Assembly (NCBI GenBank): GCA_964016885.1
Contig: OZ024741.1
Location: 237,708,001 to 237,772,000 of the forward strand
Length of the DNA stretch: 64,000 nt
DNA from: Eledone cirrhosa
Lineage: Eukaryota
Direction of reading: 5' to 3'
Position 1 is the stretch's first letter. Each line of letters begins with the position of its first letter. Positions 1 to 51,385 of this stretch are shown here, piece by piece. The notes under the pieces were generated by a model, which saw only the letters and a program-made list of their open reading frames with translations, did not search any database and was not told the origin of the DNA. Made by a program: the position numbers and the translations under genes.

Positions 1-589
1 ATTCCCCAAAAAGCCATGTCGTTGTGAAGTGAACTCCTTCATATACATATAGTAAATACATTTGTTATATTAAATCAACAACATATCTCCTCATTACTAC
101 CAGCTGCAATATATAATGGATCCTCTGTCAGTTTTGACAATGAGCATTCAGTGTTGCTGGGTATTCGACTGATAATGTACTTTTAATGTAATTCTGAAGC
201 TGAATCAGTGTGATATAATGTTTGATGAGGCCAGACTTTTGACCTACATGTACAATCCATCTGACTGGCTTCCATACAGTTTCCCTTTATTTAGTTTGAC
301 TCACAAGGCCTCAGTCAATTCAAGATGCACAGTGAGATCAAACCTAGGACTTCATGATTGCCAAGCAAACTCCTTAATTACATGGCCCTGCCTGTGTCCA
401 CAATATTCATCTATACACATATGTTGCATACATCTGTATAGAAACATATTCATATTGCTACATTTTTATTTTTACACCTATCTTGGAAACAGGTGTAATA
501 GTATTATTTTAGGTAGGACTCAGAGGTAGGTGTAATAATAAAAATTTACATTAAAAATATGCGTAATCTATTTCTATTTTTCTGTGCAG

Positions 590-1275
590 GTGAGCGACCA
601 TATACCTGTTTCACATGCAACAAATCATTTTCACAGAGGAGCCATCTGAACAACCACCATCGTACGCACACAGGAGAAAAAATCTACAGCTGTGACACAT
701 GTCATAAATCCTTTGCCCAGAAGGCACATTTGACCATTCACCAAAGAACTCATTCTGGAGAGAAGCCGTTCATTTGTACAGTTTGTGGCAAAGGGTTTCC
801 TCAGAAGGTGCACATGATAAAACACGAGCGAAGCCATAGTAGTGAGGACTTACAGCGAGCATCATTCCAGCAGTCAAACAATACAACTAACCCCCAGTGT
901 CAGCACTCATCAATCATGTCTGCTTGTTCTTCGTCTAACTGCATGCTTCCTTGCCAGGCACCGTGCATGAGCTCACCATCTGTGGCGATTTGTCAGTGTC
1001 AGTGTTCACAGCTGTCCAATCAATCAATGTCCTCAAATCTATCGATGAATCCGGCTACCAGCCACGGTATGTGTCAGTGCGGCCCTCCGGAGAATGTGTC
1101 GTCTCGATCGCAGAAAAACACTTGCATGAACTCGAACATGGGTGGCAATATGTGTTCAGAACAAATACTGGATGACTGTCAGATGTGTACGAGAATGTAC
1201 TCCAAATGGAACACTAATGTCACTAACTGCTGTAATGGGAAGCAAATGAAGAACATGGACCATTCTCAGACTTAA
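590..1275 (+). CDS. Terminal coding exon of a C2H2 zinc-finger gene (3 fingers plus a Cys/Met/Ser/Gln-rich tail)
   Basis: Acceptor tttttctgtgcag|GTGAG at 589/590 falls inside a GERPY linker. Three CxxC-x12-HxxxH fingers with TGEK/SGEKP linkers follow. Stop TAA at 1273-1275. Upstream exons lie outside the window. Confidence 0.9.
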
Positions 1276-14186: not shown

Positions 14187-15474
14187 TATTTATACCAGTG
14201 TTTACCAGCCAATGCCATCTTTTACTTAAATGACCCCAATGCGAATAACAATTGAAAGAGAGAAGAATGGATAGCCAATAATGCATACATATGTTTTTAA
14301 CGAAGTACTTGATATTTGTAACTTAGCTCACGGACCATAGTTTGTGGACTGCTAGTTTACGATTTACATGTCCGCTATATCATGTGACAGCACAATGGTT
14401 AGGTGACGATTGCTTTTTTAAGATGGTTTCCAGTTTGATTGAAGATGTAAAAGACCTCTTGCAATAGCAACTTTTCTTTGAATCACCACTTTACAATGGG
14501 TCTACATTGTTAGATTTTGAATAAGAGCATTGCTAAACATATCCTCATGGCAATGTACAATACCCCAGCCCTCCAGCAACAACAGCACAAACAATGCCAC
14601 ATACATAGAAGAGTTGACTTATCACCATCCTCAGTTTTACATCTATTTTTCGATGCTGGCATCCATTGGTGAGACTTTTTTTGAGGTGGAATTCTATTCT
14701 TTCTGAAGCCAACCCTTGTTTTTAAGTAAGATACAGATCTTCCCACATTTAACTGCTGAGCAATGGGATCTCAGTTTACATGGAACATAAACAAATATTA
14801 CTGTCTGTGATATCAAATGTGTCAATGAGAGACAGATTAGGTTTTTCACTCACTAGCAGCAATAGTCCCTCTGACAGGCTACTGTTTGCCAAATTTCACT
14901 CTTAAAGCTTTGGTCAACAAAAGGTCATGGTAAAGGATGCTTGCTCAAGGTTCTGCAGAGTGGGATTGAATCTGTAATTATGTAGTTGCAAAGTGAACTT
15001 CTTAAGAACACACACAGCCTTTTCTGCACTCATTAAATGTGTTGTAGTAATGTTGAGTAGCCAACAGGTCTGGAGATAGCAGTGTAGGTTGATGAAAAAA
15101 TATTCACAATTTTTGCATTATGTAATCCATTGGTCAGTTTAACATCATTCCTTGGCTCCTGGGTGTCTTTTGCAGAGTCATTTCTGTTGCAAACATTTAG
15201 GCCAGACCTCTTGTCTGAAGAGAATTTCTTTCTTTCCTCTTACAGGTCTCAGAGAGTGCCCTTTCCTCTCTCATTAAGGCATGTAAAAAAAAAAAAAAAA
15301 CTGTTGCCATCCTCTATATATATGTATGGATCTATAGCTCTTGATGGCGTCATAGGGGCACAATAGTGACATACTGTCTTGAATATTTTAAACCTGGCGA
15401 AGCCCATCTATATGTTAACAGGAAAAGATATTATAATTTTCTCAAAAGTGTTTTAAATTATTTTCTCAGGAAAG

Positions 15475-17106
15475 ATGTCCCAGCAACTGACAGGGGAACA
15501 GATTATTTCCATATCAAACAAAGTGATGCGCTGTGTCAGAAAATGTAACATAGTCGGTGTGAAGTCCAAACTGGATCCTCTAAAAATGCCACATCGCAAG
15601 CGTATTGCCAGCCGAAAGATCCATGGATTTACTGCATTGTTTATTGCTGTTTCATATAACAACTTGGAACTTGTACAGTATTTGTTGCATGACTGCAATG
15701 TTCCTGTTGATCAACCTGTGATATACAATGATGATGCTCAAGTAACACCATTGTTAGTGGCTGCATCAGAACACTGCAAGAATATGCTTCAGATTCTCCT
15801 TGATTATGGAGCTGATATCAATGCCAAAGACCACTTGGGCAACACTGCTCTGAAAATGTCTGTTAAAGGTGGCAATGTGGATATTGTTCAGTTTCTAATT
15901 CAAAGAGGCTCTGATGTTAATTTACCCGACCATAAAGGAGTTACCCCATTGATGGAGTCTGTGTTTAACATGGAGTTAGTTGAGCTCCTCTCTCAAAGTG
16001 ATGCTAATTTATATGCAACTGATGCAAGCGGTGACACAATTCTGCATTTTGCTGCATGTAAAGGTAATTTAGAAGTGTTTAAATTTCTTCTCCAAAAAGG
16101 TTTCAGTCCTTACACATGCAATCTCCTTGGTGAGAACTGCTTCCAGCTTGCTGCCATTCATTGGCAGTGGAGAACACTCATTTATTTATTGGTATCTTTC
16201 CCTTACCCACGAGATTCTCCACAACAATACTTTGACACTGTTACAACACAGGTATTTGTCAAAGCTCTTGAGGAAGCTGAACACCATAATGATATATTTG
16301 AATTTCCTGCACTGATGGTAACTGAAAAAATATTAGGTGCTTGCTCTACATCAATTGAGGCATTAGGTTATGCTGCCTGGTTGCAGTGTGACCTAGGTAA
16401 TGTTTCACTTGCCTGGGACGTTTATTGCCATTTACTTCGAGCCTGTCAGAGAATGAGGTGTGTAGCAGGATTTGATATTGTTACACTTCAACTGGAGGTG
16501 TTTTGGAAAATATACTGCAAAGATCAGCATTATTCAATGCCTTTTGGACAAATTATACATCTAGTACGGCAGATTGTCAATGATATCGTCATCAACTGGG
16601 AATCCCTTCAAAAATGTAATTGTGAAGAAACATCTTTGAAAAGCTCTAACAGGAAGAATGCATGGCAGACACTGTTGCTGTTTGTGGTGAACTTGCTCAA
16701 AATTCTCATTCATTACCAACATAAATGGGATTCATTAAGCTTTCAAAAGTTTTCCTGTTCTATTCTTGATAGATATACCAAGGTTCTTTCTCATACACAA
16801 CAATTAGATGCTGAACAGGAAGGAGTTACTAATGAAGATATGCCTGTAGTTTCTTTACGGCTTCATGGAAAATGGCAACTAATGGACATTACTCTTCAAG
16901 CTTGTCATGAAACACAAAACCAGTTTCTGGGAAATGCTCTCAAAGAATCTTCATACATTGTCTTTGATGCTGCTAAACTCATTCCTGTAAGAGAACCTCT
17001 TCCTCTGCAATGTCTCACTGCCAGAGTGTTAAACAAAGCAGACATTGAATTTCAGAAATACTTGCCAGCACGTTTGACTGACTTTGTTCTCCATCACCTC
17101 TCATAA
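15475..17106 (+). CDS. Fem-1-like ankyrin-repeat protein with C-terminal VHL/SOCS-type box (543 aa, single coding exon)
   Basis: N-terminal ankyrin repeats (FTALFIAV, VTPLLVAA, GNTALKMS, GVTPLMES, GDTILHFAA). The C-terminus LPLQCLTARVL..YLPARLTDFVLHH matches the Fem-1 end motif from memory. An acceptor ttttctcag lies 5 nt before the ATG. Confidence 0.85.
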   Translation: MSQQLTGEQIISISNKVMRCVRKCNIVGVKSKLDPLKMPHRKRIASRKIHGFTALFIAVSYNNLELVQYLLHDCNVPVDQPVIYNDDAQVTPLLVAASEHCKNMLQILLDYGADINAKDHLGNTALKMSVKGGNVDIVQFLIQRGSDVNLPDHKGVTPLMESVFNMELVELLSQSDANLYATDASGDTILHFAACKGNLEVFKFLLQKGFSPYTCNLLGENCFQLAAIHWQWRTLIYLLVSFPYPRDSPQQYFDTVTTQVFVKALEEAEHHNDIFEFPALMVTEKILGACSTSIEALGYAAWLQCDLGNVSLAWDVYCHLLRACQRMRCVAGFDIVTLQLEVFWKIYCKDQHYSMPFGQIIHLVRQIVNDIVINWESLQKCNCEETSLKSSNRKNAWQTLLLFVVNLLKILIHYQHKWDSLSFQKFSCSILDRYTKVLSHTQQLDAEQEGVTNEDMPVVSLRLHGKWQLMDITLQACHETQNQFLGNALKESSYIVFDAAKLIPVREPLPLQCLTARVLNKADIEFQKYLPARLTDFVLHHLS

Positions 17107-19420
17107 TTTCCACCTCCCTCACCTTCATTGGGATGGAGATGGTCATCGGCAAGAATAAGCTCTCATGCTGGTATATCTATCAGTGTATCTCTCTCCACCA
17201 CTCTTCGAGATAACACATTTGCCATTGTGTCTGCTGAGACCAGGAAGCAATCTTAAGATTTAATTTGAAAATAGCTGACACTTTATGGAATATTTCCAGC
17301 CAGTAACTGTGTATTTACCCTCCTTGTTGGATTTTTTCTGAAGTGTTCAGCTTTTTGCTGTTTTAAATTAATTTATTTTTTCATGTTTGCTGGAATGAGA
17401 TAGTTTTTGTTCTAACCCTTCCTACTGCTAACCATCCAACCATAAAGCTGGTTTTAGACCAGTCAGGGAAATGAGAACAACAGAGAGAGCCAGTAAATGA
17501 TGAGTCCTCAACAGTAGTCAGTTTATCTTAGCACCAGCACTAGGGAGGTTATCATGTCTTTGTTGAAGAATCCTCCTGACCCTTTGTTTAGCGGGCGTTC
17601 TGTGGCTGGTTGTCTTCCTATTACTAACAGATGGTATTGGGTGCATATCATGTAGATCACCGACATTAGGGAGGTTGTCATGACTTTGACACAGCTGAAG
17701 AGTCTTTCCAATTATTTGTTTGGCATGTTCTCTAGTTTGATCACCAACCACTTTACAGTGTGTACTGGGTGCATTTTTCATGTAGAGCAGCATCACTAGA
17801 GAGGTTGTTGTGTTGTTAACGCCACAGTTGACTCATCTGAACCCTGTTGGCATGGTTTCTACAGTAATATAATCTGACACTTTAATGTCATAACCATTGT
17901 GCTTCATTTAATGAGAAGTAATCAGATGAAGAGAAGTCTGGTTAGATGATCTAACTTATGAAATTTTTTTTTGTTATTTCCTCTGTTATTTGACTGTTTG
18001 GATACTTGAACTCTATGAATGGTGGATATTTGTAAAATTTCAAAGTAAAGATATCCATAACTTAAATTTCATGGCATTATGCCGATGAGAGATAAATATG
18101 AAGCAAAGTTTTTGGTTGTGGAAGAGGAATGGTGCCATAAAACCTAGCCTCCAGAGAATTTATCTGTTGTCTTCTCTGTGACGTCACAGGTCACTTCTTG
18201 GTGGCCATGTCAGTAAGAGAATTCCATGGGAAAACATTTCTTTTACTACAAATATATCCCTGGATAAGACACCAGTCTATCACATGACATTCCAAGATAT
18301 TACTTGTGATAGACAACATTAATATTTATATATATGTATATATAATGTCTTTTAGTTTGAGGAAAAGAGGTAGTCCCTTTAAGACTGGTGATGTTTAGCT
18401 GGAACACTAGTTGGCTGATCCATGTAGGTAAAATTGGGCAATATCAAGTGGGGAAATAGTGTTGTATGTGGCCCTCATGTGGAGCTGGTGATTTGACATG
18501 TAGCTTTGGCCTCTCTGTAACAGTAATAGTTACACAGTCTGAAGTCTATTGCAGAAGCATTTGTATATTATGTAAGAGGTGGCTGGTTGTTTTGCTACAT
18601 TGTTTTGTATGCTTACACCATGCAGTGTGTTAATCCAGATTGATGTTACATATGTTATTGTTTGTTGAACTGGCTGTTTCAGTTGCCTGCGATCTCTTAA
18701 CAATACCTTGGTATTTATTCTTTTAAAATCTCTTGGCCTGGATATTAAGTTTCCTATAACAAACATAATATGATACATAAACAATGTATGGTTTTCTTAG
18801 ATCAGTTATGCTTAGGTCAAGAATGTTAACGTAATTCATTTCTTGAGGGTACCTCATCATTATCATCATCATTGTTGTTTTTACATTGTCTTTTACAAGC
18901 TGGTATGAGGGCTTTTTGTTGGCTTTACAGCCATATGCCTTTCCTGGCACCAACCCTTTTAGTTGTTTCTTATGACATGCAAAGATATGGTGTATCTATT
19001 CTAAACTGGTCACACATGACCAATACTCTTGTGTATATTTATGTATCTTTATGTCAGGGTTCTGGCTTCCTAATATATCCCTGGTGTTGTTTTCACATTC
19101 TGGAGTATGAGGAAAGTTAACACTCATGTATGCACACACAATCATACACATATTGTGTGTTAGCTTTCCTCCTTGACATGCTGAAAAAGCATTTAAATAT
19201 CTTATATTGCTTGCTGCATCCTGTAGTCATCTATCTTATTTGAAAGCATCAGCAGGTCATATATGCTGTCCTACATATATATTCTTTTGTTGCATGTGTT
19301 TTTGCTAAAACAAGGGATGCAACTGAGTGTATCTTTGTCGCTTCTGTCAAAGAAAATACAACCCATGACAAGGGATGTAACTCTGGTTTGACTAAGTATT
19401 AAAAATTATATGGTTAATGA

Positions 19421-19665
19421 ATTAGGATTTGGTTTAAACCTACCTATGAAAAATCCTTGCAGATGCGTTTTTGCTCTTTTGTGGAATAACTGCATTGATA
19501 GACTGGGAAAACATCGAAATTTGGTAAAGTTCATCCTCTGTAATTCTTTATATGTTAGCTAACAGCGATCTCTGGGGTATGGATCCCTAATTTGTTAACA
19601 GTGAGCTGTCTTCCTTTGTTGGCGTGTCAGCCCTGTTTGACCAATGTAGTGTTCCACAGTGGTAG
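19421..19665 (-). mobile_element. Penelope-like element GIY-YIG endonuclease C-terminal fragment (pseudogenised)
   Basis: Manual translation across stops and frameshifts gives EHYIGQTGLTRQQRKTAHC*QIRDPY..IAVS*HI..PNFDVFPVYQC..FIGRFKPN. Confidence 0.8.
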
Positions 19666-19869
19666 TGTGCTATATGCCCTGGGCCCAGGCTTTCATTGGT
19701 ATGTGTACAGTTTTGGTTCTTTGGTTTGGTACCTAGGTCTTTTGCTCTCCATGGAGGTTAAGTTCCTACTTTTATTTCCCCTACTGCTAGAGAGGTTCTA
19801 CTGTCATTACGCTTTATTCTAGCTGCTCTCTGGTTGTTGAAAGGTTCTATATTGTTGCTACTGGTGACT

Positions 19870-20963
19870 GATGAGTGCATGTTTGTCAGTTATAGAATAG
19901 TCAACTTTGCTGATACCCTAGTTCCTTTACATATGCATAGGTTCTACATCACAAGCAGGGGCTTTTCTGTATGTTGGTGTGTATTTTATTTTCTTCTTAT
20001 ATCCTGCTTTAGTTTCTTGGGCGTGGTAAAAGTTGCAGCTGCTTATTTCGTTCATGGCTATGTCTTCCCAGTCTTTGGGTCTGGCTCTTTTTCTATCTTC
20101 TCCAAAGCTGAGATCTCTCATAGTTTCCATAGTTCCATACTTTGGACCTGTTGCTGTGTTGAGGCATCCATTCCATGTCATGTCTTTCCCTGCACCAGCC
20201 ATAGTGTTGAGACCAGCTCCGAAATTCAAGATGCTGCCGTGTACTGTTAGGTTGTCGTAGAATTCAACGTTAGTGGTATTGTTAGACGTGAATTGTTGTG
20301 CCATTTATGTGTGAATGAATCACCTTGTCTTAATTTATTTTAGTTCTCATCGCTCTCCAGTCGTGGAAGCTGTTTATTTCAGTTGTACATGATAAGACGT
20401 CAACGTCTATATTGCACTGTACAGTTTTGTTTACGTATTTTCTCGGGAATGAGTATGAGTAGGAATATTTTGGTAGGAACATTTGTGATGCATCTGTAGG
20501 TTGTACGAATTGGAATCCTCTGTTTGGTATGAAGTCTATTTTCTTTAGGTTTCTGTAACCAATATAGTTACTAGGGTCTATGAAGATTTCGAAATATGGT
20601 TGTGGATTAGGGACAAATACCTCCTTGTGTTTTGATGTCCATTCTCCACATGTTATGTGATCTATTGTTACACCTATATCTGTGATACGATATGATGTGT
20701 TCATTAGAGACAATTCGAAGTCTGTGGGTTTTATCCAGCTTGTTAAGAGGTATGGTAGTATGTAGTGCTCTGCATCTACTATTCCATAACAATAGTGTCC
20801 TATGTTGTGGTATCCTTGTTCTGTTTTGAGATATTTGGTAAATTTTACTTTAGCGGTATTCATGTTACATGATTTGATCATTTTCGGAAAGTTAGTTGGA
20901 ATATCGTCGCATCTGGTTTTTGGTTGGAGGGGGAGGCTTCCTCCTGTGTTTGTTCCTTGCCAT
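19870..20963 (-). pseudogene. Endogenous parvovirus-like capsid (VP) gene, frameshifted
   Basis: Basic N-terminus MARNKHRRKPPP (ATG 20963) joins ORF 20881-20330 by one frameshift in an A run. Motifs YILPYLLTSWIKP, YRITDIGVTIDHI and PQPYFEIFID recall hamaparvovirus VP. Continues in ORF 20304-19927. Confidence 0.65.
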
Positions 20964-21194
20964 CTGTTATTTTAGAAAAATAAGTGCCATATTTAAAATA
21001 TATCGTTGAGGTTTTGTGTTTCATAGATATTCATATCACATGCGTAGGACAGAGACGCATGTTTGTTTATATATATATATATTTATAATTCAAGGGTAAG
21101 AGATTGTCTAGACAAGTATCCACATTATGTGTGTTTGTATGATGATATAAGAAGAATTGTTATAAGATCGATTCTCACCATCCATATATATGTA

Positions 21195-21571
21195 CATAGA
21201 TACATTGCCAAAGAAATATCGGATAACAAGTTAAAGAACTTACATAGATGGTAAAATTTCAATTATTTTCAAATCAGATAACATGTAAAAAAAACTTACT
21301 TAAAAATGGTAAAATGCTGAGATTTCAATATTCTATACAGCTGTTTCATGAGTAAAAGAGAAATGGATGGTACCATAAGATGAAACACTAATCGTCGGTA
21401 GAATTTTCATTTTACTAAGCGCATTATATATGACTAGTCGCCATAGATTCAAAAGAGGAATTGAATGCACATGGTGAGGAACATAATATGAGGATACAAA
21501 CAGGCCAATGGGAATGCTTGAAATAGCAGTGGGTTTGGTCTATATAGAAGCAACTCTACTAAAATTTACTG
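21195..21571 (-). mobile_element. Second copy of the hammerhead-bearing pLTR family
   Basis: Co-linear with 4385-4712. Confidence 0.75.
21330..21404 (-). ncRNA. Hammerhead motif with mutated core (CCGACGA)
   Basis: Minus strand reads ATTCTA-CCGACGA-...-GAAAC-AGCT-GTA|TAGAAT, with perfect stems I and III. Confidence 0.6.
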
Positions 21572-21989
21572 TTAGGAGCAGAAGTATATGTATTAAAATA
21601 TTGATTAATATATAAAGTTATTAATCATATTGTCTGTCAAAAGTATAGGTTAACCCAAGTGCTACAGATTGTCACTATTAGAACCTAAAGTCAGCTCTAC
21701 TAATATAAAATTTAAGAATTTTTTTAAATTTGATATTAGTAACAATATATATTGTTATATTTGGGGATGGTCATGTTGCCAATAGAAAGAAACACATGCA
21801 CCATATAATTTTCACTTTATTTTTATTGTTCATTATTCATTTGTTTATCAAAGTTCTTTCGTTACACAATCTGTGTCTTCTTCCATGCTTATCTGTTTTG
21901 TGCCTCCTTAAACTTCTACTCCATCTTCTCTTTTGTTTGTTTTTAGGGGCGTTTTTTTGTGTTTCATGCCTGTGTGTGTGTGGGTTTGT

Positions 21990-22760
21990 ATTGTTTGCTG
22001 TTTGTGTCTTTATTCTGTCTTCAGTCATTAAGCTGCGGGTTGTAACTATTCCACTCATGTTTTCTGTTCAGGCTAGGGTTATCTTTTATTATGTGAGTGG
22101 ACTCCATAATTTGTGTTGCATCAGTTCTCTGTGTGGATAGGATCTTTATTTCTATGTTATCTATTGAGCCCTTGTGTTCTAGTTTAGCATGTTGGTATAG
22201 CACTGATGAGCTTTTCTCCTCCTTAACTTCTCACCAGTGTTCTTTTAATCTCTCTGTGTGTCGTTATCTTGTTTCTGCTTTGTCTCTGTACATCTTATCC
22301 TGTAGACTAAATTTCTAGTTTTACAGTTTATCTGTGGGCTTATTTTACAGACTATACAGTTTCTATCAGTACAAAGGTTTTTCCTAAAGGGGTATGTTCT
22401 ACTGATCTGGGATTTTAAGGCAGCTCCTGGTTTTTCTACTATTTTAATAAGGTTCATTTTTTCTAAAGCTCTTCTAAAACGGTATGCCAGTTCGTCTATA
22501 GAGGTAGTATCGACGAACATAACACTTGTATGTATTTTTGGTTGTCATACCATGAGTTAACCTTCCCTATCGTTTTCTTTGTCTTTTCTATGCTATTCCA
22601 TGATTTGCTCCTGTATTGTGGGCAAATCCAATTCATATCATTTTCCACAATGGTTTTGAATTTAGCTATGGCTCCTTTGTACACCCTGATCCTGTCTTTT
22701 GGCTATAACCAGAGAACTGCATGTGTTTCTTTAACTCTGTTGGATCGCCCGTCAGGACAT
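21990..22760 (-). mobile_element. Penelope-like element, RT thumb/linker plus GIY-YIG fragment (Naiad-like pattern)
   Basis: PQYRSKSW..WY..MFVDTT..IKIVEKPG..YPFRKNLCTDRNCIVC..CKTRNLVYRIRC..QHAKLEHKG..MESTHIIKDNPSLNRKHEW across frameshifts. Confidence 0.85.
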
Positions 22761-25429
22761 ATTTCTCATCGCCCTTACCAGGTCTGCTATCAAGATATTG
22801 AACTTATCACTATTTGAGATAGCTGACATCTTTAAGATGTCAAGTGGAGGATTTTGACATCTTTGTCTAAACTGAGCTTAAAGCAAATCTGTGTGTGTGA
22901 ACGCACAGGCAGTTTATACGTTTGCATATATCTATGCACCCATGTGGGTAATTAGGTATGTGTTAATGTTTGTTAGCAAGCATGCTACTCTAAAATCATA
23001 TAATCTGGGACACTCCTCTAGCTTCTGTCATCACCAGACTAGCTATTGTCATCACCACATCTAGTTCCTATCATCTACCAAGAAACTTATATAAATAAGA
23101 AGTATGTCTTACTGAGTTGATATTTTCTATAACTTATTTTAAAGTTCTTCATGAGGATATTCCTCACTGAATTAACAAAATGTTTTTGTTTGTGCACCAC
23201 TGGGTCATGGGTATCAATCACAAAATTAATTTGAGGTTTGCTAATTATATACTTTCTACAGTACCCATGGAACTCCATGTTTGATATCTCAGCCAAGTAC
23301 TTCCTATTAAAGTATTTTGCATTTTCCTCTAAATTGTACCCATGAATATTTTCCTCCTATCTTCTTTTTAACTGGACCCACGATAACATTGTTTCCCAGT
23401 TATATTTTCCTATCATCCTCTCAACAATATTGTTCTCATGGATATTTTTTAAACTAAAGTAATGGGTGAAAACATGACTGTGTGGCTAAGAAGTTTGCTT
23501 TGTGACTACATAGTTTTGGATTTGATCACATTGCACAACACCCTGGGTAGGTGTCTTCTACCATAGCCACAGGTCACTAAAAAATTTGTAAGGGGAATTT
23601 TGGTCGATGGAAACTGGAAGCGCATCAGAAAAAAGTTTTTGTTTTTGGTTTGTAGACTTAATGTCACCTGGTTTAACACCACCACTTGGCTCTTGGGTGC
23701 ATTTAACGGAGCCCACTCTATTGTAGGTATCCAGGCAAAATATTTGGTCTGTGGATAATCTTTTTCTTCTTCCTATATTTACAGAGGCTCTGAAAAGGGT
23801 TGTAAATACTGTCCTTTCTCTGAATAAGCCATTAAAAAAAGTGTTTGCTTTCCAAGTACCCTACTGTGTGATGTATATGGAAGGTCACTGTGTAATCATC
23901 CCTGTTTGCGATTGATCTGTTGACCACATCTATATAAACAGCATATAATCTAGCAGAGATGATTTCTCAATAAGAAAAAAAGCAAGAAAACCCTTAAGAA
24001 TTGATTGCTTAAACATTATAGCCTTCTCCCTCCACTTTTACCTTACTGCTACTTGGAATAAGTGGGACATTGAACAGAATTGCTTATGAGCTTATGTTAT
24101 GCCAATCATGCAGCATCAGCAATCGCAGTTTCTTTATTATTATCAGCTGTCTGTTGTATGAGATTCTAAATCTTGTTTTATTCAATCCCCCCATAGAGCA
24201 TTGGGGTGAATCTACTTGTCGTTTTTGTAGCAATTTGAGTACCAAAAGGCAAGGTCGTTAGCCTAGTGTGCCATCCTTTGTCCTTTCTCTATATGGGCTG
24301 GATACCAATGAGGGATAATTCTTAACCCTAGATAAGAACCCATTCCAGGTACTCTCAGATGTAGCCTGCTGAGCTTGTGTAAGGTAGAGTTGACACGCCA
24401 TGTTGTAATGACTGAGGTTACTGCCTCTTACCTTAAGATTACACAATGTCTAATTATTGCATTGAATCCCTTCGTCATTGATAATGTTAAGTTTGCTAGT
24501 CTACCAAAATGGCAAAACTTATTTGTCAATGTGTGACTCTCATGAACCTTCTAAGGTTAATTTTGATATCACATAATCAGTGGTGGGTATACTATAAAAT
24601 TGATGATTATGCTTCAGGGTCCCTCCAGATAATGAAGATGTCCCCATAACAATTCAAGCATCAAATATACCTCTGCCAAAAAAATCATATAACCCATATC
24701 TTTGTTGTAATAACTTTTTTCTCACAAATAATTGTTATTATAATATATATGTTTTCTACCATCCAACTTTATTATTATGTGTTGCAATGTTTTCTAAAAT
24801 ACAGTTCTATTATATTGGTATACTATATTTTCTGCATCACAGGTATTATTTTGTTAACATTGTATGGAAATTTATAGGCGAAATTTGAACACTTGTTTAT
24901 TTTTTTACATTACAGCCAGTGATATATTTTTTAACTATTCTATATGAATAGACAACTTCCTTATCAAATAAAAATGAAGCTGTTCATAAATTTCTTCTTT
25001 TCACCACTGCATAAATCGAACTTATGACAATATTTTTCTTTCAATAAAAATTGTTATGAAATTTTCTTTTCAATATCAATTTGTTTCTCATAAATTTATT
25101 TTCATTTCATCAATTGCTGTTGCTTTATTATTCATACCCCAGTCATTAGGAGCACTTGATATTTTCGATTTAACCCTATTTGTTATTGTATTTCTAATGA
25201 TACACTACTTATGTGTATCAATTAATTCTGATAGTTTGAAGAATTTAATGAGATAAATAAATTTCTCATTAATAAAGCTGATGTTTGAAACCTTACTTAA
25301 ATAAAATAATGATGGAATGTTTTGATATAAGTCTGAACATTTCAAAATTAGTAATTGTGAATCATAAATCTATGGTGCTTTCAGGAGGGTTGGTTTCAAA
25401 GCAGTTAAAATCTGCCAGTGATCATATAT

Positions 25430-37730: not shown

Positions 37731-38159
37731 ATTTTGAGCTAAATAAAGAGAGCCTCTATGTGTTTACTTGACTAGAAATAGCAACCACATTTATCACAAA
37801 TCACATTACCATCACCCTTTTAAGAAAGCAGGTCACTTTAGGTAACAAAACCTTAGATATATTATGTCTGAAAAACAATTAGGAGATGTTCAAAGCTGGA
37901 ACAATTTTGATTATACATCTGATTATCAACAACAACAGCTAGCTTGTAATGTTAGAGTTCAAACTAGGAATAACAGCATGACATTGTTCTAACAAAGTCA
38001 CCATTATGTTTTATATTCAGCTTTCATATTACCCCATATTCTATATTTGACTGAGATTTGTAGCTATGAGTAAAGATAAGCCTATTGCCATCTTATAGTA
38101 GCAACTAGTTTGGATTAAACTATTAGATATTGTTAACTTAGATAAGTGTTTCAACTCAC

Positions 38160-40460
38160 CTGATGAGTAATTTCTGTTGTTTCAAGAAGAACAGAAGAGT
38201 TTAATCCATCCAATATTGGTTGTCCACATGTTGCCCCACTTGGATGCACATTTGGATCAGGTGTACTTTGGTCTGATGGACTGATTTTGCTGTGGCAATG
38301 CTGATTGTTTCGGTTGTTGCATTTAGTAATGCACAATGTTAGAGGAATTGCAAATGATACAGATACCACAATTGCCACCAGGATTATGATAATTAATAAA
38401 TTTAAATCTAATTCCACTCCTGTTTGCTGTTCAGCAGATGTCATTGTTTTTGTGCTTTTGTTGTTAACAGTTACTGTCAGAGACAAATTAGTGAGAGATG
38501 AGAGAACAGGGGTGCCACTGTCTGTCACAGATATCTGTAGTTCATGAACACCAGAGTCATTGATGTTAATATGCCGGGCAAATAGTAGTAAACCAGAGTA
38601 ATGGTTGATGTCAAACAAGCTTCGGTTATTTCCTGTGATAATACTGTATGTGAGGAAAGCATTTTGTCCCCAATCAATGTCTTTTGCCTTCAAAACTGTG
38701 ATGTTATTTTGACTGGAATTGTAGAAAATATCAAGCGTAAAAGGATTGTCTGAAGGGAATATAAAATAAGGGGCATTATCATTTTCATCTGTAACTATAA
38801 CATTGACACTTGCTGTGCTATTGAGTGGTGGAGAGCCTTTATCAGTAGCCACAACATCAAAATTATAACTATTTTGTTGTTCACGGTCCAATGGTTCTTT
38901 AGTTGATATCATTCCATCTTTGGAGATTTGGAATGGTGTATGAGATTTGTCGGTGCAACACAAATGGAAGTGTAACTGCCCTCCTGGCCCCAGGTCTGCA
39001 TCTGTTGCGCTGAGAATACCTATTGTAGTGTGAGCTTTGTTGTTTTCTTTTGTCCAGAACTGGTAGAATTCCTTGGAAAACTTTGGGTGTTCATCATTAA
39101 TATCTGTTACAATGACTGAGAACTTATCTTTGGTCTGTAAAGGTGGGGTTCCCTTGTCATAGCAGGTGACCGTGACACCGTAGTAGTCGTCCAACTCTCT
39201 ATCAACTTTATTTTTGATAATAACTTTAAATTTCTTGGGACCTAATTCTACAAGCTGGAATTTATTATGTTTCATCTGACATACAACCTCTCCATTCTGA
39301 CCAACATCTTCATCTTCCACTTTAATGTATGCAATGAAACTACCAATTTGAATTTGTTCAGATATTATGGCAGTTTTACCTGATGTACTTGACACAAAGA
39401 TGAAATATATTTTGGGTGATTTATTCTTTTGATTTAAAATGTTTACAAGAACTCCTGTCATTGAGCTGAGAGGTGGTTTACCACCATCAATTGCTTCAAT
39501 ATACAACCAATGAGTCAATTTCTCCCCTGAACTAAATTTCCTTCGTAAGAACAATTCACCCGTCTTTTGGTTCAGTTCAAAATGGGATTTTAAATTTTCT
39601 GGTGTATTGATGCTGAAATGGTAGCTGATGTCACCATTTTTCTCCATATCTTCATCACTTGCAGATAACAGCAAGATTGGAGAAGGTTGATAATTTTCAT
39701 TGATAACAGTAATATTGTAGACATTGTGTGTAAATACAGGGGGATTATCATTGACATCGACAACTTTAACTTCAACGTCCAGAACATTTTCTTTAGTTGG
39801 AATTCCCTTGTCTTTAGCAATTACCTGCATCTTGTATACATCTTTTGTTTCTCTGTCAAGATTCTCTTCAAGATAAATCCAAAGTTCATCTGTTTCATCG
39901 AGACGTTTGGAAACAGTTAGTGAAAAGGGATCACCAGGGTTGACCTTTAGTTGATATTCTATCTCTGAGTTCAATTCTCCAATATCTTTATCAAAAGCGC
40001 TTGGAATCCTTCTTGTTCTCCCCATTTTGTCATCCTCTAAAAACTCTATTTTCACTTTACTCTTAGGAAACTGAGGGCAGTGATCATTAAGGTCAAGCAC
40101 AAATATTTTAATTTCAAGTATTTTGATAAAAGTCTCAGCTTTTTCAATAGCAATGTCTACAGTTCTAGAACATTCCCTGTTCTGAACACACATTGATTCT
40201 GCATCTAGCATTTGAGTAGTGTACAGCTTACCTGTTTTTTCTGATACACGGAAGAAAGGCAAACCATCTGTGAAACCTTGGCCCACCTGGTTGAATCGGA
40301 TGAGATCTTTCTCTAGAGCATTGATGCTATTCAGTAGCTTAGAGTCATCTGCAATGTCACCAAGAAATGTACCTGGCTTTTTGCCTTCTTCCACATAATA
40401 TATTAAGTCTGCACCAGAACAACATTGAAGGGTTATAAAAACTACTATCAATGTGAACAT
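38160..40460 (-). CDS. Protocadherin exon 1 (signal peptide, 6 cadherin repeats, TM, juxtamembrane)
   Basis: DLNDHCPQF, LDRE, DVNDNPPVF, DINDEHPKF and DENDNAPYF motifs. TM is LLIIIILVAIVVSVSFAIPLTLC. Donor CAG|GTGAGT at 38160/38159. Confidence 0.96.
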
Positions 40461-40967
40461 GACACATTGATGCTGAATACAGCGAACAGTTTAGATAGAG
40501 TGGTTTCATCCATAAAAGTCCATGGAGAATGCATCAGGCTATTCATCTACAGAGATAATACTGTGTGTACAGAGTAAGATAGTTCAGGAAGAGAGCAGAC
40601 AGCCTATATATTTATAGGAATTTCATTCTGTAAGGACCAGAGAAATTATATCAGACAGTTTCACTATTCAATAATCAGAAAAAATATATAAATAGAAAAT
40701 ACAACATATAATTTATACATTCATAGACGTGTGTGTGTATTCTTCCAGTGCACTGTGCCTATGTAGAAGCATCACCTTCAAGGATTTTAGTAAATTATAT
40801 TAACCCCAATATTCAGTCTGTTATTTATCAAATTGTTGTGGTTTATCCAAGATACATCCTTTAAAAAAGTAACTGCCCTCTATGGACTTAAATACCACAC
40901 ATTATTTACCCAAACACAGGATAAATTGTAAGTATATATATATTATATATGTGTTGGCATTAAACAT

Positions 40968-46319: not shown

Positions 46320-49300
46320 TACAGTGATGTAGTTATAGTGGTGTAGGGGTTGGGGTTATAGTGGTGTAGGGGTTGTGGTTACAGTGGTGTAGTGGTTGTA
46401 GTTACAGTGGTGTAGTTATAGTGGTGTAGTGGTTGTTGCTACAGTGGTGTAGTGGTTGTGGTTATAGTGGTGTAGGGGTTGTGGTTACAGTGGTGTAGTG
46501 GTTGTAGTTACAGTGGTGTAGGGATTATGGTTACAGTGGTGTAGTAGTTGTGATTACAGTGGTATAGTGGTTGTGGTTACAGTGGTGTAGTGGTTGTGAT
46601 TATAGTGGTGTAGCGGTTGTGGTTACAGTGATGTAGTGGTTATAGTGGTGTAGTGGTTGTGGTTACAGTTGTGTAGGGATTGGGGTTATAGTGGTGTAGA
46701 GGTTGTGGTTATAGTGGTGTAGTGGTTGTGGTTCTAGTTACAGTGGTGTAGTGGTTGTGGTTCTAGTTACAGTGGTGTAGTGGTTGTGGTTCTAGTTATA
46801 GTGGTGTAGAGGTTGTGGTTCTAGTTATAGTGGTGTAGTGGTTGTGGTTCTAGTTACAGTGGTGTAGTGGTTGTGGTTCTAGTTATAGTGGAGTAGTGGT
46901 TGTGGTTCTAGTTATAGTGGTGTAGAGGTTGTGGTTCTAGTTATAGTGGTGTAGTGGTTGTGGTTCTAGTTACAGTGGTGTAGTGGTTGTGGTTCTAGTT
47001 ATAGTGGTGTAGTGGTTGTGGTTCTAGTTACAGTGGTGTAGTGGTTGTGGTTCTAGTTATAGTGGTGTAGAGGTTGTGGTTCTAGTTATAGTGGTGTAGT
47101 GGTTGTGGTTCTAGTTACAGTGGTGTAGTGGTTGTGGTTCTAGTTATAGTGGAGTAGTGGTTGTGGTTCTAGTTATAGTGGAGTAGTGGTTGTGGTTCTA
47201 GTTACAGTGGTGTAGTGGTTGTGGTTCTAGTTATAGTGGTGTAGTGGTTGTGGTTCTAGTTATAGTGGTGTAGAGGTTGTGGTTCTAGTTATAGTGGTGT
47301 AGTGGTTGTGGTTCTAGTTATAGTGGTGTAGTGGTTGTGGTTCTAGTTACAGTGGTGTAGAGGTTGTGGTTCTAGTTATAGTGGAGTAGTGGTTGTGGTT
47401 CTAGTTATAGTGGTGTAGAGGTTGTGGTTCTAGTTATAGTGGTGTAGTGGTTGTGGTTCTAGTTATAGTGGTGTAGTGGTTGTGGTTCTAGTTATAGCGG
47501 TGTAGTGGTTGTGGTTCTAGTTATAGTGGTGTAGAGGTTGTGGTTCTAGTTATAGTGGTGTAGTGGTTGTGGTTCTAGTTACAGTGGTGTAGTGGTTGTG
47601 GTTCTAGTTATAGTGGTGTAGTGGTTGTGGTTCTAGTTATAGTGGTGTAGAGGTTGTGGTTCTAGTTATAGTGGTGTAGAGGTTGTGGTTCTAGTTATAG
47701 TGGTGTAGTGGTTGTGGTTCTAGTTATAGTGGTTTAGAGGTTGTGGTTCTAGTTATAGTGGTGTAGAGGTTGTGGTTCTAGTTATAGTGGTGTAGTGGTT
47801 GTGGTTCTAGTTATAGTGGTGTAGTGGTTGTGGTTCTAGTTACAGTGGTGTAGAGGTTGTGGTTCTAGTTACAGTGGTGTAGTGGTTGTGGTTTCTAGTT
47901 ATAGTGGTGTAGTGGTTGTGGTTCTAGTTACAGTGGTGTAGTGGTTGTGGTTCTAGTTATAGTGGTGTAGTGGTTGTGGTTCTAGTTATAGTGGTGTAGT
48001 GGTTGTGGTTCTAGTTATAGTGGTGTAGTGGTTGTGGTTCTAGTTACAGTGGTGTAGAGGTTGTGGTTCTAGTTATAGTGGTGTAGTGGTTGTGGTTTCT
48101 AGTTATAGTGGTGTAGAGGTTGTGGTTCTAGTTATAGTGGAGTAGTGGTTGTGGTTCTAGTTACAGTGGTGTAGTGGTTGTGGTTCTAGTTATAGTGGTG
48201 TAGTGGTTGTGGTTCTAGTTATAGTGGTGTAGTGGTTGTGGTTCTAGTTATAGTGGAGTAGTGGTTGTGGTTTCTAGTTATAGTGGTGTAGTGGTTGTGG
48301 TTCTAGTTATAGTGGAGTAGTGGTTGTGGTTTCTAGTTATAGTGGTGTAGAGGTTGTGGTTCTAGTTATAGTGGTGTAGTGGTTGTGGTTCTAGTTATAG
48401 TGGTGTAGTGGTTGTGGTTCTAGTTACAGTGGTGTAGTGGTTGTGGTTCTAGTTATAGTGGTGTAGAGGTTGTGGTTCTAGTTACAGTGGTGTAGTGGTT
48501 GTGGTTCTAGTTATAGTGGTGTAGAGGTTGTGGTTCTAGTTATAGTGGTGTAGTGGTTGTGGTTCTAGTTATAGTAGTGTAGAGGTTGTGGTTCTAGTTA
48601 TAGTGGTGTAGTGGTTGTGGTTCTAGTTACAGTGGTGTAGTGGTTGTGGTTCTAGTTATAGTGGTGTAGTGGTTGTGGTTCTAGTTATAGTGGTGTAGTG
48701 GTTGTGGTTCTAGTTATAGTGGTGTAGTGGTTGTGGTTCTAGTTATAGTGGTGTAGAGGTTGTGGTTCTAGTTACAGTGGTGTAGTGGTTGTGGTTCTAG
48801 TTACAGTGGTGTAGAGGTTGTGGTTCTAGTTACAGTGGTGTAGTGGTTGTGGTTCTAGTTATAGTGGTGTAGAGGTTGTGGTTCTAGTTATAGTGGTGTA
48901 GTGGTTGTGGTTCTAGTTACAGTGGTGTAGTGGTTGTGGTTCTAGTTACAGTGGTGTAGTGGTTGTGGTTCTAGTTACAGTGGTGTAGTGGTTGTGGTTC
49001 TAGTTACAGTGGTGTAGTGATTGTGGTTCTAGTTACAGTGGTGTAGAGGTTGTGGTTCTAGTTATAGTGGTGTAGTGGTTGTGGTTCTAGTTACAGTGGT
49101 GTAGTGGTTGTGGTTCTAGTTACAGTGGTGTAGTGGTTGTGGTTCTAGTTACAGTGGTGTAATGGTTGTGGTTCTAGTTACAGTGGTGTACTGGTTGTGG
49201 TTCTAGTTACAGTGGTGTAGTGGTTGTGGTTCTAGTTATAGTGGTGTAGTGGTTGTGGTTCTAGTTACAGTGGTGTACTGGTTGTGGTTCTAGTTACAGT

Positions 49301-50640
49301 GGTGTAGTGATTGTGGTTCTAGCTACAGTGGTGTACTGGTTGTGGTTCTAGTTACAGTGGTGTAGTGGTTGTGGTTCTAGTTATAGTGGTGTAGTGGTTG
49401 TGGTTCTAGTTACAGTGGGGTAGTGGTTGTGGTTCTAGTTACAGTGGTGTAGTGGTTGTGGTTCTAGTTATAGTGGTGTAGTGGTTGTGGTTCTAGTTAT
49501 AGTGGTGTAGTGGTTGTGGTTCTAGTTATAGTGGTGTAGAGGTTGTGGTTCTAGTTACAGTGGTGTAGTGGTTGTGGTTCTAGTTATAGTGGTGTAGAGG
49601 TTGTGGTTCTAGTTATAGTGGTGTAGTGGTTGTGGTTCTAGTTATAGTGGTGTAGAGGTTGTGGTTCTAGTTATAGTGGTGTAGTGGTTGTGGTTCTAGT
49701 TACAGTGGTGTAGAGGTTGTGGTTCTAGTTACAGTGGTGTAGTGGTTGTGGTTCTAGTTATAGTGGTGTAGAGGTTGTGGTTCTAGTTATAGTGGTGTAG
49801 TGGTTGTGGTTCTAGTTACAGTGGTGTAGTGGTTGTGGTTTCTAGTTATAGTGGTGTAGAGGTTGTGGTTCTAGTTACAGTGGTGTAGTGGTTGTGGTTC
49901 TAGTTATAGTGGTGTAGAGGTTGTGGTTCTAGTTATAGTGGTGTAGTGATTGTGGTTCTAGTTATAGTGGTGTAGAGGTTGTGGTTCTAGTTATAGTGGA
50001 GTAGTGGTTGTGGTTCTAGTTATAGTGGTGTAGTGGTTGTGGTTCTAGTTACAGTGGTGTAGTGGTTGTGGTTCTAGTTATAGTGGTGTAGAGGTTGTGG
50101 TTCTAGTTATAGTGGAGTAGTGGTTGTGGTTCTAGTTATAGTGGTGTAGAGGTTGTGGTTCTAGTTATAGTGGTGTAGAGGTTGTGGTTCTAGTTACAGT
50201 GGTGTAGTGGTTGTGGTTCTAGTTATAGTGGTGTAGAGGTTGTGGTTCTAGTTATAGTGGTGTAGTGGTTGTGGTTCTAGTTATAGTGGAGTAGTGGTTG
50301 TGGTTCTAGTTATAGTGGTGTAGTGGTTGTGGTTCTAGTTATAGTGGAGTAGTGGTTGTGGTTCTAGTTATAGTGGAGTAGTGGTTGTGGTTCTAGTTAT
50401 AGTGGTGTAGTGGTTGTGGTTCTAGTTATAGTGGAGTAGTGGTTGTGGTTCTAGTTATAGTGGAGTAGTGGTTGTGGTTCTAGTTATAGTGGTGTAGTGG
50501 TTGTGGTTCTAGTTACAGTGGTGTAGTGGTTGTGGTTCTAGTTATAGTGGTGTAGAGGTTGTGGTTCTAGTTACAGTGGTGTAGAGGTTGTGGTTCTAGT
50601 TACAGTGGTGTAGTGGTTGTGGTTCTAGTTACAGTGGTGT
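46320..50640. repeat. Minisatellite: about 23-bp units (46320-46730), then about 135 copies of a 29-bp unit
   Basis: Unit gttayagtggtgtagwggttgtg expands to gttayagtggtgtagwggttgtggttcta. Confidence 0.98.
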
Positions 50641-50809
50641 GACAGTAGATGCTCTATGGCTTGGTATCCTTTGATCATGTGATCTATTTGTATCTGTTTC
50701 TTCACTGGTGAGGTTGATGAGGAAAGATGAGTGAATGATGACAGGTGCACGTAGACAGACACACACAGACAGACACACACACACACACACACATAATATA
50801 TAAATACAT

Positions 50810-50844
<35 letters not shown>

Positions 50845-51385
50845 TATATATATACAGATGTATATGGATATGTACACACACACACACTATATATATATAT
50901 ATATATATATACCTATGTATATATATATATATATATACACACATATATATAGTGTATGCCTGTATTTGTATATATGAAAAAAGTTAAATTCTGAGATTAA
51001 GATTTAGATAATCAACTCATGAAAGTATGAATAAAGTATGAGGCTGGTAGCAGGACTGATATCTATATATATAAAGAGAGAGAGAGGGAGAGAGAGAGAG
51101 AGAGGTAGAGAGAGGGAGAGAGAGGGAGAGAGAGGGAGTGAGGGAGAGAGAGAGTTTTACAAGGTGTGGAGATTCCAGCTAAGACACCTGATTGAGTGTT
51201 TGATGTGTTTACTTTACTGGAATATATTTCAGTTTTAAATCTGTTCAGTCTGAGGAGATTAATAATGACAGCATCATTGGTGATGCTTGTGGTGGCGGCG
51301 GTGCTAGAGATACTGTTGCTTACAGTGGTAATGGAGCTGCTTGTGTAATTGTGCCAACTATATATATATATGTGTGTGTGTGTGC

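Follow-up and report, generated by a model that had tools for sequence, protein, structure and literature searches.

A degraded parvoviral capsid fragment among co-oriented Penelope-like and hammerhead-bearing repeats in an animal genome

The locus described here lies in G000:C2:237708001-237772000 of a 3.0-Gb animal genome. In this stretch of 64 kb, which we call the window, there are also a protocadherin exon, C2H2 zinc fingers, and an ankyrin ORF, a combination that hints at a cephalopod. Between positions 22826 and 19280, a piecewise genome search resolved six abutting pieces from six different sources, all of them sense on the minus strand. Read along that strand, they are the 3' end of Penelope family A, the hammerhead-bearing repeats X and Y, a parvoviral capsid (VP) fragment, an internal scrap of Penelope family B, and the 3' end of Penelope family C. 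The co-oriented order of Penelope parts, hammerheads, and capsid described in an earlier note on this DNA is thus real. A, X, and C end in (TA)n, Y starts after (TA)n, and two (AT)n runs bracket the Y-capsid-B-C block. The flanks at 22900-25400 and 17900-19280 match none of the fetched loci. The arrangement of six pieces on one strand has a probability of 1/32 at face value, in a locus that had been picked for this look.

The family A piece (22826-21745, minus strand) is a 5'-truncated 3' end with the RT end, thumb, a CX4CxxC linker, a C-terminal GIY-YIG domain, the 3' UTR, and an (AT)n end. It shows 74-80% BLAST identity to 24 fetched loci, which extend further upstream. The longest relatives stop at the same base as the window copy, in (AT)n. 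Against an unbroken copy, tblastn reveals four frameshifts and one stop in the window copy. The earlier note had called this module Naiad-like. The Penelope RT end, thumb, and GIY-YIG are present at 22826-22040, but the defining trait of a Naiad does not fit: Naiad is defined by an N-terminal GIY-YIG endonuclease (PMC8557442), and in the relative L161 a single 437-aa frame runs from RT through thumb and linker to a GIY-YIG that is C-terminal. The same source gives as further Naiad criteria the lack of a canonical hammerhead and a DKA motif with an insertion in the fingers, and its supplement enters 'HHR_half_core' for two cephalopod Naiads. In the relative L113, read by itself, a DKS motif and a long stretch after RT3 are found.

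A decayed hammerhead, suspected earlier at about 21890-21846, is present at approximately 21885-21845 (minus strand) as a variant within the family A 3' UTR. Family copies read TTGAGGA-GGTCACA-loop-TGTGAC-GAAAG and keep a perfect stem II and the GAAA; in the window copy, the core and stem II are altered.

Repeat X (21743-21085, minus strand) is a non-coding, hammerhead-bearing repeat of about 650 bp with (AT)n on both sides, similar to a retrozyme or a solo pLTR. Among the best 40 of 479 candidates, its copies share common ends. The intact core CTGA(C/T)GA...GAAACA...GTA is found in 7 of 29 loci, and the window copy, whose core at about 21398-21340 reads CCGACGA, is not intact. Only one weak Penelope protein match occurs among the 29 loci. 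A hammerhead pLTR had been placed here, at 21571-21195. The hammerhead repeat stands, but it is an independent element with its own ends, terminal to none of families A, B, and C, and the 105 bp of Y separate it from the capsid. Those 105 bp (21074-20970, minus strand) are the 5' part of a hammerhead-bearing element of about 600 bp that is cut at the capsid junction. They are identical at 100 of 105 bases to a copy at G000:C2:393846185, where the element continues past the cut made in the window, with CTGATGA...CGAAACGTC in the same orientation. The continuation directly past the cut is absent from the window, and on this ground we rejected a scenario in which capsid-B-C inserted into Y and Y resumes downstream. 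The hammerheads are demonstrated by family alignment; an Rfam scan of 12-30 kb returned no hammerhead and just (AT)n-driven miRNA matches, and the hammerhead strands, folded singly, showed no signal (z -0.08, -1.70, and -0.21).

The capsid fragment runs from 20969 to 20012 (minus strand) and is cut at both ends. A capsid-like gene had been proposed at 20963-19870; its parvoviral capsid origin is confirmed, but its extent is not, and the ATG at 20963 lies out of the capsid frame, leaving a fragment without a start of its own. It corresponds approximately to residues 135-465 of a 613-aa relative, with the PLA2 region and the C-terminal part missing. Two frameshifts, near 20336 and 20270, interrupt it, and its 318 codons are free of in-frame stops. 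Neither the window nor its vicinity contains a match to the 3' part that is lacking, and a nesting of B into the capsid was discarded because the remaining capsid sequence is absent. The capsid frame continues in frame into the thumb end of B, as happens by chance in one of three cases.

Searched alone, the window fragment finds nothing in Pfam, PDB, or a protein database (117-373 aa were searched in the last). Its identity comes from its relatives. The capsid matches 23 places in the genome, and with a further search 19 other loci were fetched; three further capsid loci were left out of the 19-locus analyses. The fragment is parvoviral because these relatives carry PLA2 (PF08398) and adjoin Parvo_NS1 (PF01057), the latter detected beside VP in L102 and L115 at E 1e-16 to 5e-18. 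In longer family copies, VP and NS1 share a strand, with VP upstream. In the 10-kb stretch that surrounds the window fragment, NS1 is absent. The unbroken 613-aa relative matches three unnamed full-length database proteins at 38-39%, and 135 representatives at E up to 0.001. A 53-row family profile matches solved parvovirus capsids in PDB (best E 1.3e-12), AAV-type capsids among them, and also VP3-only chains (E about 0.002) in the region held by the window. A model of the relative L072 built with an alignment has a beta-rich core at a mean pLDDT of 62.8, and a fold from a single sequence reached a pLDDT of 28.7. The sequence profile suggests a jelly-roll fold. The fragment lies inside a 416-Mb contig, and read contigs cross its joints at host depth. 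It is a degraded endogenous parvoviral element that cannot encode a capsid, and it belongs to a family of at least 20 loci, derived from a parvovirus lineage whose relatives are all unnamed.

The earlier note had left a gap of about 200 bp after the capsid. No such gap exists, as 20011-19655 (minus strand) is the family B scrap. It comprises the end of a Penelope thumb together with the linker, is truncated on both sides, and directly abuts the capsid. It matches six other places at 70-84% identity (seven matches), where the upstream frame encodes a Penelope thumb. Hydra clade elements are characterized by RWK, DKT, and CxCX5C motifs (PMC8557442, section 11). The corresponding motifs were read not in the window piece but in relatives that match B's thumb at 42-62%: L109 has RWR and DKT, and L115 has CNC, the start of a CxC linker, in a frame that ends before the third cysteine. 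By these motifs, family B may be of the Hydra type.

From 19654 to 19280 (minus strand) follows the 5'-truncated 3' end of family C, with the second Penelope GIY-YIG C-terminus that had been noticed before, a 3' UTR, and an (AT)n end. Its best other copy is at 81-82%, so that C has no close sibling among the best 40 of 134 candidates. Three stops and two frameshifts were read by eye in about 85 codons. The B/C joint lies in GAACACT, a 7-bp microhomology common to B, C, and the window. Insertion at (TA)n is recorded for Hydra and Naiad families (PMC8557442).

The arrangement of these pieces is unique. Three spanning searches, in which 15/15, 5/5, and 7/7 candidates were scored, yielded no sequence that crosses a capsid joint, and no junction of the window is reproduced in any of 200 other fetched loci. 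Four of these 200 carry two of the six pieces, never as neighbours in the window's arrangement, and the layout recurs at none of the 19 other capsid loci. In one sequencing run, a single contig spans 18953-21040 at a depth of 13.5, compared with 13.7 in unique flank. A second run of the same sample gives a contig over 18976-21040 at 12.1 versus 14.4, and a third run gives one contig over 18900-21700. Contigs crossing at flank-like depth mean that the joints are real in the reads and single-copy; the runs (X1-X3) may include the assembly's own sample, and they place the joints in reads, which says nothing about fixation or expression. The joints have no coverage in the RAD run X5. Among six candidate units for a target duplication, there are only AATATATAT microsatellite/(AT)n matches or 7-bp AT-rich ones. 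No matched pLTR pair surrounds the capsid: its flanks Y and B, like A, X, and C, belong to unrelated families. The capsid joints have no clear microhomology, which was rejected as evidence because they were judged without the donor virus sequence. The locus is not a mobile Penelope-capsid chimera. The earlier note had raised such an element and named single-copy junctions as the outcome that would speak against it; neither the capsid/GIY-YIG side nor the pLTR/capsid side recurred in the genome-wide search.

Nor is there a significant association between the capsid family and Penelope. Penelope coding sequence occurs within the 10-kb stretch at 8 of 19 capsid loci, compared with 14 of 60 random stretches drawn from matched contigs (Fisher p 0.14), and at 5 of 15 when a cluster on C12 is excluded (p 0.51); the samples are small, and a two-fold effect could be missed. 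In four of those eight loci, the nearest Penelope element is co-oriented with the capsid. Penelope-derived sequence makes up about 2.4% of control DNA with the query set used. It lies within 500 bp of 2 of 53 viral ends versus 1.9% of control points (p 0.27) when the window, chosen for this trait, is left out; with the window included, the figure is 4 of 55 (p 0.02). Both of the other viral ends near Penelope lie in the one C12 cluster. There, L109 has a direct co-oriented Penelope-capsid joint that involves a different element and order from those of the window.

The C12 cluster itself (C12:8.94-9.14 Mb, 194 kb) contains parvoviral and Penelope fragments with 45 matches on the minus and 10 on the plus strand (p 2e-6; the matches are not all independent). 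It is a candidate for a uni-strand cluster in which parvoviral fragments abound.

The pieces differ in their decay. Bases off the column majority amount to 6.8% in A (74/1082), 6.3% in X (40/639), 9.1% in B, and 14.3% in C (53/371), and these divergences are biased low, as relatives were chosen for likeness to the window copy. The differences in A are spread evenly over codon positions (16/13/18), and those in C show no third-position excess. Such a spread would be expected of copies that decayed in place. The capsid can be dated only through its lack of stops. Stops number 3 in about 85 codons of C and 0 in 318 of the capsid (Fisher p 0.009); between A and the capsid, the difference is not significant (p 0.26). 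A simple neutral model gives a stop-free capsid a probability of 0.002 if divergence is 14%, and of 0.04 if it is 7%. Since C has stops and the capsid has none, and since Y is 95% identical to its nearest copy, both the capsid and Y appear to be of more recent origin than C, and the stronger decay of C argues against a single co-insertion.

We consider it probable, though well short of settled, that a break in a Penelope nest already built on (TA)n targets was filled with viral DNA or cDNA. Penelope-type elements and hammerhead derivatives would have stacked up via (TA)n targets and (TA)n tails, and C likely joined B by the 7-bp microhomology, removing the 3' part of B. Penelope 5' joints made by microhomology and free of TSD have been described (PMC3846280). 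A later break within Y and B was likely healed with internal parvovirus DNA or cDNA, with the intervening DNA deleted. The capsid fragment would have decayed afterwards, with no matched terminal repeats to move it. We infer this order of events. A single break-repair event explains the 3' cut in Y, the 5' cut in B, and both cuts in the capsid, and the near-background Penelope proximity of the other capsid loci supports it. Three observations count against it: the co-orientation of all six pieces (p 1/32), which break repair accounts for partly by luck; Penelope-derived neighbours on both sides of the capsid, in a genome where they form about 2.4% of control DNA; and the second direct co-oriented joint at L109.

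The same observations fit a one-off retro-copy, which we regard as unlikely but the strongest of the alternatives. Here, a Penelope RT would have been primed at a broken end or at the 3' end of C in (TA)n and would have jumped templates from C to B, then to capsid mRNA and on to Y RNA, in one event, leaving a product that has been immobile since. Every piece is in the mRNA sense, Y-capsid-B-C sits between two (AT)n runs, the internal pieces are truncated on both sides, which is what template jumps would leave, the B/C joint has its microhomology, and L109 provides another co-oriented direct joint. Penelope moves other sequences in trans and template jumps have been proposed (PMC3846280), and hybrids of RNA viruses with LTR retrotransposons, made by copy choice, are known (PMC6797480). 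Against this, C is the sole piece downstream of the capsid with a Penelope 3' end and is more decayed than the capsid, it has no close sibling (best 81-82% in the best 40 of 134 candidates), the capsid joints have no clear microhomology as judged without the donor virus sequence, and Penelope is not in excess at viral ends genome-wide. A DNA virus can integrate without any RT. The retro-copying of capsid mRNA by Penelope machinery that the earlier note had offered is possible, and orientation is the only positive evidence for it. The bolder proposal that a Penelope RT template-jumped onto parvovirus capsid mRNA, with the window locus and L109 as two independent products, is more doubtful still.

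The break-repair reading also has to be weighed against a remnant of a small uni-strand piRNA-type trap, which would keep fragments antisense to a plus-strand transcript. Co-orientation extends across 3.5 kb, a strand-biased cluster of the same ingredients exists on C12 (45 minus versus 10 plus), and parvoviral EVE clusters of such a kind are reported in shrimp (PMC9357335). The window itself, for which the earlier note had suggested such a trap, is balanced, with six minus and five plus coding matches, like controls (35 versus 38), and the flanks of the locus at 22900-25400 and 17900-19280 match no fetched locus, which makes a trap improbable here. That a mobile Penelope element captured the capsid gene and spread with it draws on the layout and on the capsid frame continuing into B, and it is barely credible for a frameshifted capsid cut at both ends, in a unit without RT, with single-copy junctions, flanks from more than one family, neither paired pLTRs nor a TSD, and a layout found at none of the 19 other capsid loci.

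As it stands, the locus is one more degraded viral fossil among repeats and matters little. If a template jump did take place, Penelope would join the retroelements known to endogenise viral RNA, and a route for DNA-virus transcripts into the germ line would be opened. The earlier note held that a Penelope-capsid chimera would be undescribed. This premise may hold, as no report of a Penelope-parvovirus chimera was found in the openly licensed literature, but the locus is not such an element. A literature search for parvoviral EVEs of the host group found nothing.

Several known systems share features with the locus. X and Y resemble the non-LTR retrozymes (bioRxiv 10.64898/2026.07.22.740005) in being non-coding hammerhead repeats, which that source describes as non-autonomous Penelope derivatives; X and Y, at about 600-650 bp, exceed them in length and are dispersed. 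Terminons (PMC6431247) likewise have co-oriented ORFs punctuated by hammerheads, and include virus-like Rep ORFs. They are telomeric and multi-copy with intact Athena RTs, whereas our locus is internal, single-copy, and made entirely of fragments. In the Aedes vDNA hybrids and EVEs (PMC6797480), virus and retroelement are also joined directly, possibly by copy choice. Those hybrids were shown for RNA viruses joined to LTR elements; at our locus the virus is a DNA virus, the retroelements are Penelope, and nothing shows that an RT made the joint. Another Penelope case is the capture in Adineta vaga (PMC3846280), where an NRPS gene lies between pLTRs, again a foreign coding sequence co-oriented between Penelope sequences. 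There, the pLTRs are of one family and an 8-bp TSD is present, in contrast to the unrelated flanks, cut cargo, and lack of TSD found here. Truncated, degraded parvoviral VP/NS EVEs next to TEs, as at this locus, have been described in invertebrates (PMC5013282). The present lineage has only three full-length database relatives, at 38-39%, and in its longer copies VP lies upstream of NS1. The mollusc sequences reported there fall outside known genera and resemble vertebrate parvoviruses, and the family profile obtained here matches AAV-type capsids.

The host assembly contains a strand-biased cluster at positions 8,941,100-9,135,199 of contig C12 (G000:C12), comprising loci L209-L225, L112, L109, L102, and L113. 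Penelope elements and fragments of the parvoviral capsid (VP) and NS genes are densely packed in this cluster. Coding matches across the interval number 45 on the minus strand versus 10 on the plus strand, and the bias peaks at 8.965-9.105 Mb. The interval is a candidate for a uni-strand cluster of the piRNA type, whose content would be antiviral.

At L109:5411-5442, the RT-thumb-linker of a Hydra-like Penelope is joined directly, and in the same orientation, to a capsid fragment. This fragment is in turn joined to the C-terminus of NS1. Family A, the Penelope-like family whose 3' end lies in the window, is represented by L161:2355-3665 and L113:7459-9472. Its RT has DKS and a long stretch in the fingers region, features that we take to be Naiad-like. 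In this family, the RT is paired with a GIY-YIG at the C-terminus and with a variant hammerhead that reads TTGAGGA.

The window also carries further features. An ankyrin-repeat frame on the plus strand (15457-17106) is intronless, with 549 codons in a single frame, and is possibly a retrogene or a single-exon gene. A C2H2 zinc-finger frame (517-1272, plus strand) and a protocadherin-type exon that encodes five or more cadherin repeats (38154-40490, minus strand) were also found. A tandem satellite with a 29-bp unit (46558-51000) comprises approximately 135 listed copies, in register and with 95-98% identity, and shows strong GC skew.

VP lies 5' of NS1 on the same strand in L099, L101, L102 (twice), L104, and L111, with a spacing of only about 10-200 bp. 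In L101:4112-7440 (G000:C19), a stop-free capsid frame of 622 codons is followed by a broken NS1 frame. The placement of VP ahead of NS1 could be genuine for this parvovirus lineage, or it may reflect circular permutation; the usual gene order in parvoviruses is the reverse.
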